Positions 11,786-16,033 of a DNA stretch of 64,000 nucleotides are shown piece by piece. A program made the position numbers and the translations under genes. The notes under the pieces are model-generated. The model had not been told where the DNA came from. It worked only from the letters and a program-made list of their open reading frames with translations, and did not search any database. The stretch is from the NCBI GenBank assembly GCA_965215005.1, contig CBDCCZ010000014.1:32001-96000 (forward strand), given 5' to 3'. The stretch comes from Kofleriaceae bacterium. Lineage in GTDB: Bacteria > Myxococcota_A > Polyangia > Haliangiales > Haliangiaceae. Numbering within the stretch: position 1 is the first letter of the stretch; every line of letters begins with the position of its first letter.

Positions 11786-11990
11786 CCCCGTCATCGGCCG
11801 CAGGGTGGGGGCACAGCGGTCACTGCGGGTACTCACCCCTCGCGTGTGACTACGCCGGCTCCTGCGGCTCTTCGAGCCAGCCCACCAATGGCGCGACTCG
11901 CAACCGATTCTTGCGGCCGGCGGATCGTCTCTTCCTCGGGACCGCACTTTGCACCACGCTTTCCCGAACAGTTTCGCGCGGAGCAGTGTC

Positions 11991-12632
11991 ATGCGTCTTT
12001 TAACGTGTTCGTTCGTATCTTCTGAGGAGTTTCTCTCGCACTACTCCGCGGCGGTTGGCGGCGGCGCCCTCTTCTATCGCACCCGCGCCGCACTAGGCCA
12101 AGGCGAAGCCGTTCTCCTCGAGGTGTCGTTCCCGGGGCTGCCCAACCGCGCCTTGATGCGAGGCACCGTGCTCGAGCGACGGCAACGCAAAGGGTCATGG
12201 GTCCGGCTCGAGCAAGCAGACACGTCGACGTTGGCGTTCCTACTGCATTTTGCGCGCGGCCACTCCGGTGACGGACGCCGGCGCGAGCGGGCCTTCGACC
12301 GGTTTCCAGCCCGCGTTCCGGTAGAGGCGCGCGCGAGTGATCAGCGCGTGGTGATTGGCAGCACCGCGGACCTCGGCGCCGGCGGCGCGTTCGTCACCGC
12401 GGGTGAGCTTCCGGCGGTTGGGACCCAGGTGGAGCTGGTGCTGGGCCCCACCGGCGAGCGACGCGATACCTACCGCGTCACCGGCGAGGTTGCGTGGGTT
12501 TCTGCGGGTCACGACCGCGGCTTTGGCGTCAGATTTCATCCGCGCAGCAGCGCCGATGGCCGGCGGCTCCGCGTCATGCTCCGGCGCGCCTCCGAGTGCG
12601 GCCGCGCGAGCTTCGCGGGCCGCGCCGGGTAA
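11991..12632 (+). CDS. Tandem PilZ-type domain protein
   Basis: First degenerate PilZ-like unit (GGALF..GEAVLLEVSFP); second with RAFDR and DLGAGGAF..GFGVRF. Confidence 0.85.
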   Translation: MRLLTCSFVSSEEFLSHYSAAVGGGALFYRTRAALGQGEAVLLEVSFPGLPNRALMRGTVLERRQRKGSWVRLEQADTSTLAFLLHFARGHSGDGRRRERAFDRFPARVPVEARASDQRVVIGSTADLGAGGAFVTAGELPAVGTQVELVLGPTGERRDTYRVTGEVAWVSAGHDRGFGVRFHPRSSADGRRLRVMLRRASECGRASFAGRAG

Positions 12633-12770
12633 CGCCGAAGCGAGCGTCACGCCGAAACGGCGAAGCGGCCGCTAGCACGTCTCAACGACGCAGCGCGGCC
12701 GCTCGATTGGATGCATCAGCGGCCGCGTCCTGTCATCGAGGACGTGGCCATCGAAGCGCGCGCAGAAACA

Positions 12771-12935
12771 CTACTGAGCAGGCTGTGGAGCCGGCTGCCC
12801 GGGCTCACCGCAACCGGCGAACAGCTCTTCGTCGCTGGGCGTGGAATGGCGCGACATCACTGCCTTGCGCCGCCGGCCCATGTTCTTGTGGCGGCGTTTG
12901 CGCTTGTTATCACTCTTTTTGGTATCCGATGCCAC
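12771..12935 (-). CDS. Small basic protein (54 aa), absent from ORF track
   Basis: GTG start with GAGGAG RBS (12943-12948); MASDTKKSDNKRKRRHKNMGRRRKAVMSRHSTPSDEELFAGCGEPGQPAPQPAQ*; promoter immediately upstream. Confidence 0.8.
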   Translation of the reverse strand: MASDTKKSDNKRKRRHKNMGRRRKAVMSRHSTPSDEELFAGCGEPGQPAPQPAQ

Positions 12936-12961
12936 TGGACTGCTCCTCGTGCGAGTCGCCT

Positions 12962-12986
12962 CTTCTATCCAAGCGGGAAGCCGCTG

Positions 12987-12990
<4 letters not shown>
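12962..12990 (-). promoter_or_regulatory. Sigma-70 promoter for the small basic protein
   Basis: TTGACA-N17-TAGAAG on the minus strand; the -35 overlaps the rel stop codon. Confidence 0.65.
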
Positions 12991-15167
<2,177 letters not shown>

Positions 15168-15325
15168 GGCTGCAGCCAACGTGGCTGTGACACAACTTGT
15201 ACCAGGCGCGCGATAACGTCAATGCCAGCCAGTGGTGGCCTGCGGCACTGCAACGCCAACCGCGCCATCGAATCGCCGCCGCGTGCCCTTCGCACAGCGA
15301 GATAGAAGCTCACCCATCGCAGCAT

Positions 15326-16033
15326 TCAGCCATGGGCCGAACGGATCAGCGAACGGGCGTGCTCGACGACCCAGTCGCTCGAGTTCTCCCGCACCAGCGC
15401 TGCGAGCTCGCTCAGCCGATGCGGCACATCGTCGCGCTCCGCCGCGCCGTAGCGGCGAACCAAGTAGACCGCGCGCAATAACCGATACGCAGCTTCGAGC
15501 TCCTCGTTGACGATGAGGTGATCGTAGTCGGCGTGGTGCTCGAGCTCGTCCTTGGCCTTGCGCAGCCGCCGCGCGATGACCTCGGCGTCATCGCTAGCGC
15601 GCCGCCGCAGCCGCGCCTCCAGGGTCGCCATGTCGGGCGGCAAGATGAAGATCTTGAGCGAGTCTGCCGGCCACTGCCCCGATAACGCCCGTCCGCCCTG
15701 CCAATCGACGTCAAAGACGACGTCGCGGCCGCCCGACAGCGCGCGCTCGACCGCGGCTCCGGAGGTTCCGTAGCGATTGCCGTGGACCTCGGCGTGCTCG
15801 GCAAACTCGCCGCGCGAAACCATGGCCTCGAACGCATCTGGAGTCACGAAGCAATAATCGCGTCCCTCGACCTCCCCGGGCCGCGGCGGCCGCGTGGTGT
15901 AGGAAACCGAGAACTCGAGGTTGTCGAACTCGGCCAGGAGGCGGCGCGCCAACGTGGTTTTGCCGGCACCAGACGGCGACGAGATGATCACCAGGATGCC
16001 GCGCCGATTTGGCCCTGCAGAGAAACTCTTCAT
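15326..16033 (-). CDS. gmk: Guanylate kinase
   Basis: SSPSGAGKTT, SVSYTTRPPRPGE..GRDY.F, HGNRYGT, DVDWQG, IFILPP. Confidence 0.96.
   Translation of the reverse strand: MKSFSAGPNRRGILVIISSPSGAGKTTLARRLLAEFDNLEFSVSYTTRPPRPGEVEGRDYCFVTPDAFEAMVSRGEFAEHAEVHGNRYGTSGAAVERALSGGRDVVFDVDWQGGRALSGQWPADSLKIFILPPDMATLEARLRRRASDDAEVIARRLRKAKDELEHHADYDHLIVNEELEAAYRLLRAVYLVRRYGAAERDDVPHRLSELAALVRENSSDWVVEHARSLIRSAHG

Follow-up and report, generated by a model that had tools for sequence, protein, structure and literature searches.

A candidate ribosomal microprotein family of Myxococcota and Bdellovibrionota, represented by a small basic protein encoded next to rel

Only cryo-EM revealed the unannotated basic ribosomal microproteins of Borrelia and Flavobacterium (PMC10618245, PMC11851116). 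bS22 (AURKAIP1/COX24, PF08213; analogues eL41/eS32 and mS38) is a very basic protein that forms a bent helix and binds a pocket of 16S rRNA helices h2, h27, h44 and h45 (PMC10618245). bL37 and the N-terminal extension of Borrelia uL30 are likewise small, basic, bent helices of restricted lineages that sit in an rRNA pocket (PMC10618245). bL38, a lineage-wide protein of 5 to 6 kDa in Bacteroidota and Borrelia, was found only by structure, and the tiny, basic and lineage-variable bTHX (PF17070) is listed as variably present (PMC11851116). bL38 consists of a β-hairpin plus a helix, and its gene shares an operon with those for bL28 and bL33.

Here we describe a 54-residue protein from a Kofleriaceae bacterium and the family to which it belongs. 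Like bS22 (about 30 to 55 residues), members of this family (40 to 60 residues) are small, very basic, predicted to form a bent helix, often unannotated, and encoded by a stand-alone gene with TTGAC upstream (present at 19 of 20 bS22 loci). The two differ in Lys plus Arg content (58% for bS22, 33% for the family), and an invariant central Gly and a C-terminal tail of the form GTTPxF(P/A)IH or STxSxxELF are features of the family. The family is also more variable, with a mean column identity of 35% versus 80% for bS22, in sets that differ in breadth. In comparison to bL37 and the uL30 extension, the family has no PDB sequence match, occurs in different taxa and is a longer, stand-alone protein. 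Unlike bL38, it is predicted to be all-helical and lies outside ribosomal operons.

A small gene with its own promoter-like element next to rel

The window, the whole stretch of 64,000 nucleotides that was analyzed, carries the gene on the minus strand at positions 12771..12935 (54 codons, GTG start), as supported by its open reading frame (ORF), composition, homologues and dN/dS. The product has a mass of 6.06 kDa and a pI of 10.6, and all 13 of its Lys and Arg residues lie within residues 1 to 30. The ORF, its GTG start, the basic N-terminal run and an STPSDEELFAG stretch are all present as reported in a preliminary description of this DNA, together with a Shine-Dalgarno-like GAGGAG located 7 nt 5′ of the GTG (12943..12948, minus strand).

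The gene starts 51 nt past the stop codon of rel (RelA/SpoT family, TIGR00691, 730 residues; 12987..15179, minus strand), the last gene of yicC-gmk-rel. A putative sigma-70-type −35 hexamer, TTGACA (12985..12990, minus strand), contains the rel TGA (12989..12987), and a putative −10 hexamer, TAGAAG (12962..12967, minus strand), follows 17 nt past it. The placement of TTGACA-N17-TAGAAG over the rel stop was described correctly, and the 3′ end of rel carries this putative promoter element. A consensus promoter scanner returned no site for this pair, because its −10 model demands T as the sixth base. Across the family, TTGAC occurs within 130 nt upstream of the gene in 181 of 204 loci, compared to 175 of 1,509 long ORFs of the same genome; the combination of TTGAC with YA at the −10 distance, YA being the conserved positions 1 and 2 of the −10 box, occurs in 170 of 204 loci versus 67 of 1,509 long ORFs. 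This enrichment, which is seen whatever the neighboring gene, indicates that the promoter element belongs to the 54-codon gene and not to rel, as had been proposed. Judged from the position of TTGAC, leaders of 6 nt or less would result in 15 family loci.

On its 3′ side, the gene faces a convergent gene for a PilZ-domain (TIGR02266) protein (11949-12632, plus strand), which is also adjacent in loci L002, L003 and L005. Between the two lies a long G+C-rich hairpin devoid of a U-tract (12676..12746, minus strand; 113 nt folded), with a folding energy of −58 kcal/mol and a z score of −2.78, 3 of 200 shuffled sequences being as stable. The terminator scan made no call for this hairpin, which is a possible 3′ end signal of the 54-codon gene. 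The usual place of rpoZ is between gmk and rel or spoT; in the window it is missing from that interval (15179-15326) and is found instead on contig C27 of the same genome.

The 54-codon ORF is a real gene. In 57 disjoint pairs of homologues, picked by nucleotide identity from 206 genes, the pooled dN/dS was approximately 0.16, with values below 1 in 53 of the 54 computable pairs, and differences at the first, second and third codon positions numbered 227, 200 and 752, respectively (752 of 1,179 at the third position). A chance ORF or the shadow of an antisense frame might be suspected, since the ORF is short and is overlapped by two long plus-strand ORFs (12711-13370 and 12494-13033). That interpretation is refuted by the dN/dS value, by homologues in hundreds of genomes, by the detection of the Bdellovibrio homologue as peptides, and by stop codons that break the antisense frames in 8 of the 10 closest other loci. 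Conservation and purifying selection thus came out as the preliminary description would have them.

The position of the gene directly behind rel, which is correct for the window, had been taken to suggest a stringent-response factor. Among 148 loci examined with flanks of 1.5 to 3 kb, some of them ended by contig ends, rel adjoined the family gene in 8, all from close kin; rel was upstream on the same strand in 4 of these (the window, L002, L006 and L008) and convergent in the other 4 (L003, L005, L007 and L011). There is no conserved pattern of synteny or cotranscription with rel, and the stringent-response link is therefore not supported. The neighbors found elsewhere include a type II/IV secretion ATPase gene on the opposite strand (47 loci), holB (23 loci), metK (19 loci) and, in smaller sets, genes for TatD, tetratricopeptide repeat (TPR) proteins, TruA, S49 and other peptidases, and a thiolase. 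Since neighbors vary by lineage, the proximity of rel is local and uninformative on function. A role as a partner of Rel or a stringent-response regulator, to which the 51-nt distance and the same-strand arrangement in three further loci would lend themselves, is highly improbable in view of these counts, of a promoter element that is kept whatever gene adjoins, and of the Bdellovibrio homologue, whose expression goes up in the growth phase and not in the starved attack phase in the supplementary data considered below. The adjacency is likely incidental, and we do not regard rel as a functional partner. In the 47 Bdellovibrionota loci numbered within L095-L172, the gene lies on the opposite strand beside genes for a secretin and the type II/IV secretion ATPase.

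Distribution and predicted structure of the family

A single-sequence search retrieved 38 homologues and a profile search 1,354 clusters; the broad profile retrieved 456 representatives (clustering at 50% identity, E ≤ 0.001). The own genome contains one match to the family profile, and the family is present in all 59 genomes of the own class (G000 included). In the own phylum, 155 of 301 genomes had a match to the broad profile A3 at E ≤ 1.7e-7; matches extended to 174 genomes at E ≤ 0.05, from which the 19 with E > 0.002 were left out. Profile A5 found the family in 118 of 151 Bdellovibrionota genomes, with one match each, and two further small phyla contributed 9 of 14 and 3 of 39 genomes. 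The gene is thus single copy and near-universal in its lineages. A scan of GTDB contigs for the family motif gave at least 119 loci, and many of the 80 titled records were from Bacteriovoracaceae, Oligoflexia and Bdellovibrionales. Named relatives with a homologue include Haliangium, Kofleriaceae, Enhygromyxa, Sorangium and Polyangiales, and the window would accordingly belong among these myxobacteria. Judged from these profile and motif matches, the family spans at least four bacterial phyla, including Myxococcota and Bdellovibrionota.

The phage and plasmid collections gave no matches to the family, and no credible A3 match was found in the own-phylum families f15, f22, f25, f27, f29 and f30. 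A deeper search of 10 family-negative genomes returned nothing below an E value of 0.03 and no family-like short ORF. Six loci carry record titles of Sulfitobacter, Enterobacteriaceae, Flavobacteriaceae or Rickettsiales (L122, L164, L170, L137, L143 and L169). The flanking genes of five of them (all but L143) group with Bacteriovoracaceae or myxobacterial loci. The six titles are probably mislabeled and these taxa were therefore excluded from the family range. Two distinct family copies are present in genome G029 (L035:1797-1934 and L036:2974-3111), and genome G127 has two family matches, each close to a contig end.

The family core comprises approximately 40 residues, and the shortest members have about that length. 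Residues M1, S3, R12, G20 and K24 and a following (G)T(T/P) element are conserved family-wide, R23 being near-invariant as well in one of the family alignments. Most members end in GTTPxF(P/A)IH; the window subfamily and the genus Bdellovibrio end in (S/G)T(x)S..LF, and families f18 and f26 have yet another tail. The STPSDEELFAG stretch, which had been described as a core, is accordingly a subfamily tail and not a family-wide core. The first 40 residues contain on average 33% Lys plus Arg and 4% Asp plus Glu (186 members of at least 40 residues). AlphaFold2 models of the window and Bdellovibrio proteins agree with each other (pLDDT, 84; pTM, 0.44 to 0.45) and predict a helix at residues 4 to 18, a break at the invariant Gly20, a second helix from residue 21 to residue 30 or 31, and a short third turn. 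Both predicted helices are rich in Lys and Arg, and a short conserved element of Thr, Pro and aromatic residues comes after them. The protein is thus short and strongly basic with little globular fold, as are lineage-specific ribosomal microproteins. Twelve longer representatives that we inspected seem to owe their length to start sites called too early, to low-complexity tails or, in one case, to a chimera, and none was an informative fusion. P0263 (96 residues), in which an N terminus that looks LysR-like by eye is joined to the family core, is probably a chimera. Long Lys/Ala/Pro-rich C-terminal tails follow a 41-residue core in L121, L157, L180 and L101, which are of the Bacteriovoracaceae type. 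The cluster of the Haliangium protein also lists a 582-residue E. coli primase, probably a clustering artifact.

The window protein had been left without a named family, and it has no match in Pfam or NCBIfam. Thirty members of set A2 searched against the same libraries gave a best E value of 0.036, for one member each, and five divergent members gave 0.006 at best, with helix-turn-helix (HTH) models below the cutoff. Sequence and profile searches of the PDB revealed no homology, the best profile rows being a designed repeat protein and uS14 at an E value of 0.49. For the 54-residue helical model, Foldseek returned no matches and VIA-align returned generic helices with a best Z score of 3.5; neither fold search was informative for such a model. 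Rfam had no matches across 20 family loci. Neither Q6MGZ6, CAE81131, WP_011166074 nor Bd3769, all designations sought for the Bdellovibrio member, was found in main texts (subscription papers and bioRxiv supplements were outside the scope of the search), and Bd3769 was not found in the Tn-seq supplement of PMC6561027. The literature search for ribosome structures or ribosome proteomes of Myxococcus or Bdellovibrio returned only unrelated reviews. The family is therefore one for which we found no model, no structure and no mention in the literature.

Relation to bS22 and other known small ribosomal proteins

The possibility that the protein is a divergent bL32, bS22, bL34, bL33, bS21 or bTHX that has gone unrecognized deserved attention, since the ESM Atlas automatically labels the cluster nearest to the Haliangium homologue "50S ribosomal protein L32 family protein" (score, 0.95), and since the distribution of the family is almost complementary to that of bS22. 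That Atlas cluster shares no Pfam family, however, and the Bdellovibrio query returned only "hypothetical protein." The family has no match to PF01783 (bL32), a canonical bL32 is encoded elsewhere in the own genome (E value of 1e-16), and none of 186 members has two Cys residues. Canonical bL33 and bL34 genes were found in all five genomes tested, and the family matched neither Pfam model; a canonical bS21 gene is present in the own genome, again with no family match. PF17070 (bTHX) had no match in the own genome or in the family. A separate rpoZ was found in all five genomes tested. With the canonical genes in place, we rejected the idea that the family replaces bL33, bL34, bS21 or the omega subunit of RNA polymerase. 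Orthology to bS22 is contradicted by an hhalign probability of 0.3%, by negative bit scores of bS22 on the family profiles, by the lack of a family match to PF08213 (bS22/COX24), and by 12 genomes that hold both genes. Co-occurrence with the canonical genes largely refutes the interpretation as a known protein, which we consider scarcely tenable.

The distribution of bS22 was analyzed in the same genomes. bS22 was not found in the own genome (92.8% complete). Among the 301 genomes of the own phylum, 143 contained the family only, 63 bS22 only, 12 both and 83 neither, so that bS22 was present in 63 of 146 genomes lacking the family versus 12 of 155 genomes having it. Eleven of the 12 genomes with both genes belong to f26 and one to f51, and among these exceptions are variants in which the conserved motif at the C terminus has been lost. 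In Bdellovibrionota, three genomes had bS22 over the cutoff, all of them among the 33 lacking the family. None of the 14 and 39 genomes of the two small phyla had a bS22 match; since most of the 39 lack both genes, these phyla do not inform the exclusion test. Fisher's test on the 12/143/63/83 table gave a P value of 6e-13, to which we attach no weight, since related genomes are not independent observations; the patterns track lineages and so reflect few events. Orthology is ruled out, and strict replacement weakened, by the 12 genomes that carry both genes. The family and bS22 thus nearly exclude each other in distribution, and they are not homologous. The further proposal that the family is a nonhomologous replacement filling the decoding-center pocket of bS22/eS32/mS38 in predatory bacteria is tentative, and we regard it as doubtful.

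Expression of the Bdellovibrio homologue and candidate functions

The protein encoded at locus L223 is identical to Q6MGZ6 of Bdellovibrio bacteriovorus (locus tag Bd3769). Over 40 residues, it shares 40% identity with the window protein; its score on the window-subfamily profile is 25 bits, compared to a maximum of 12 bits in 2,000 shuffles. In the TMT proteome supplementing PMC12546842, Bd3769 was detected by three unique peptides and increased by 0.63 log2 at 3 h (FDR of 5e-9) before declining. Its time course was compared over 11 time points with 36 ribosomal, 34 background and 21 housekeeping rows of that table. The ribosomal rows were taken from places 1 to 26 and 41 to 67 of 67 text matches, leaving out RimO, PrmA, an acetyltransferase, and the second paralogue each of S1 and S4; the background set comprised all 34 other rows in the part of the table that holds Bd3769.

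Within these rows, the correlation of Bd3769 with the median of the 36 ribosomal proteins (r = 0.88) equaled or exceeded that of 13 of the 36 ribosomal proteins, and none of the 34 background rows was as close. The best partners were uL30 (0.98), bS21 (0.96) and uL23 (0.95); r exceeded 0.85 for 19 of 36 ribosomal proteins versus 1 of 21 housekeeping proteins, the closest of the latter being the mutase Bd1853 (0.90). Four of the 21 housekeeping rows followed the ribosomal median at least as closely as Bd3769, namely, EF-Ts (0.98), RpoA (0.95), EF-G1 (0.89) and IleRS (0.885), so the time course shows membership in the growth and translation regulon and not binding. The summed TMT signal of Bd3769 (5.1 to 5.8 log2) was approximately 1 to 2 units below those of bL35, uL30 and bS21, such sums not being molar. 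A lysine-rich 42-mer could account for the low signal, and lower abundance could fit it also.

At the RNA level, Bd3769 increased from 4.7 RPKM in the attack phase to 1,491 RPKM in the growth phase in the supplement of PMC3627812, compared to 6 and 2,861 RPKM for bS21; growth-phase-specific expression is common, since it applies to most rows in the first part of that table. In the sorted RNA table of PMC10627809, Bd3769 (1,106 RPKM) stands between uS4 (1,011) and bL9 (1,126), which would correspond to approximately the 96th percentile according to the row numbers in that table.

We consider it somewhat probable that Myxococcota, Bdellovibrionota and related phyla have in this family a lineage-specific ribosomal protein that had gone unrecognized. 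The resemblance to lineage-specific ribosomal microproteins that was noted at the outset held, the protein being conserved, separately promoted, small and basic, and we infer that it binds the ribosome or RNA. This assignment draws on the core-gene pattern, the size and charge, the bS22-like gene layout, the behavior of Bd3769 protein and mRNA, and the cryo-EM precedents. Arguing against it are the lack of PDB homology, a gene that is never beside ribosomal-protein genes (none were found among the 35 of 45 recurrent neighbor clusters that were annotated), covariation that is not ribosome specific, the lower TMT signal, the commonness of growth-phase expression, and a variability greater than that of bS22. 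If the assignment is correct, an rRNA pocket would accommodate the bent basic helix, as for bS22, bL37 or bTHX; there the helix would neutralize rRNA backbone charge and might stabilize the folding or assembly of one ribosomal subunit, a role that bS22, bL37 and bL38 have in other lineages (PMC10618245, PMC11851116). Its own housekeeping promoter would keep production of the protein matched to the rate at which ribosomes are made.

A less probable explanation, to which we give some minor weight, is that the protein is a nonstructural RNA- or ribosome-binding factor of the growth regulon and not a stoichiometric part of the ribosome. It could then be an assembly chaperone, a tRNA- or mRNA-binding protein, or an accessory subunit of RNA polymerase. 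The location of the gene outside ribosomal operons is compatible with such a factor, as are, in the proteome table, the translation factors and RpoA, which follow ribosomal proteins equally well, and the Bd3769 signal below that of small ribosomal proteins. However, the predicted 40-residue bent basic helix devoid of a globular domain would better suit an rRNA-embedded protein, and in the same table Bd3769 tracks small ribosomal proteins better than the polymerase subunits RpoB (0.55), RpoC (0.58) and RpoZ (0.19). The separate rpoZ of the five genomes tested speaks against an accessory subunit of RNA polymerase.

It is unlikely that the protein is a small nucleoid-associated protein that binds or compacts DNA. 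Its high Lys plus Arg content would be in keeping with this function, as would the long Lys/Ala/Pro-rich tails of L121, L157 and L180, which presumably recall histone H1. The Bdellovibrio nucleoid is indeed compacted by unusual proteins (PMC10627809). Nevertheless, the time course of Bd3769 departs from those of three HU proteins, whose correlations with the ribosomal median in the proteome table were 0.57, 0.35 and −0.13, and its mRNA is nearly absent in the attack phase (4.7 RPKM), although the protein is present then. The searchable supplements of PMC10627809 name Bd3769 once, in the RNA table. The protein-intensity sheet does not list it, which for a peptide-poor protein is a weak argument.

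If the ribosomal assignment holds, the ribosomes of at least four phyla, among them those of the model predator Bdellovibrio bacteriovorus and of the myxobacteria Sorangium and Haliangium, contain an additional protein that has no name, which would lengthen the short list formed by bS22, bL37, bL38 and bTHX. The gene is often uncalled and, when called, is named "hypothetical." Bd3769 would offer a concrete, genetically tractable target, and the near-exclusion with bS22 would make it testable whether unrelated basic helices can swap in one rRNA pocket. Were the family to replace bS22 in its pocket, a 70S map of Bdellovibrio would show Bd3769 as a density close to h44 that has no assignment, and the protein could influence aminoglycoside access. 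Even if it is not ribosomal, the protein is a conserved single-copy core protein that lacks a family model and deserves one. New here are a single profile uniting the Myxococcota and Bdellovibrionota members, the proteome and transcript evidence assembled on Bd3769, the finding that the family is none of the canonical small ribosomal proteins, and the distribution pattern of bS22.

Two further small ORFs were observed in the own genome. A 49-codon Arg/Lys-rich ORF on contig C10 (L269:814-960, minus strand), with no Pfam or NCBIfam match, has TTGAC upstream and an AAGGA site. A very basic 40-codon ORF on contig C12 (L268:959-1078, plus strand), seemingly uncalled and with no Pfam, NCBIfam or PDB match, has TTGAC upstream and a GGAG site; its start presumably recalls that of bTHX, and it is another candidate ribosomal microprotein.
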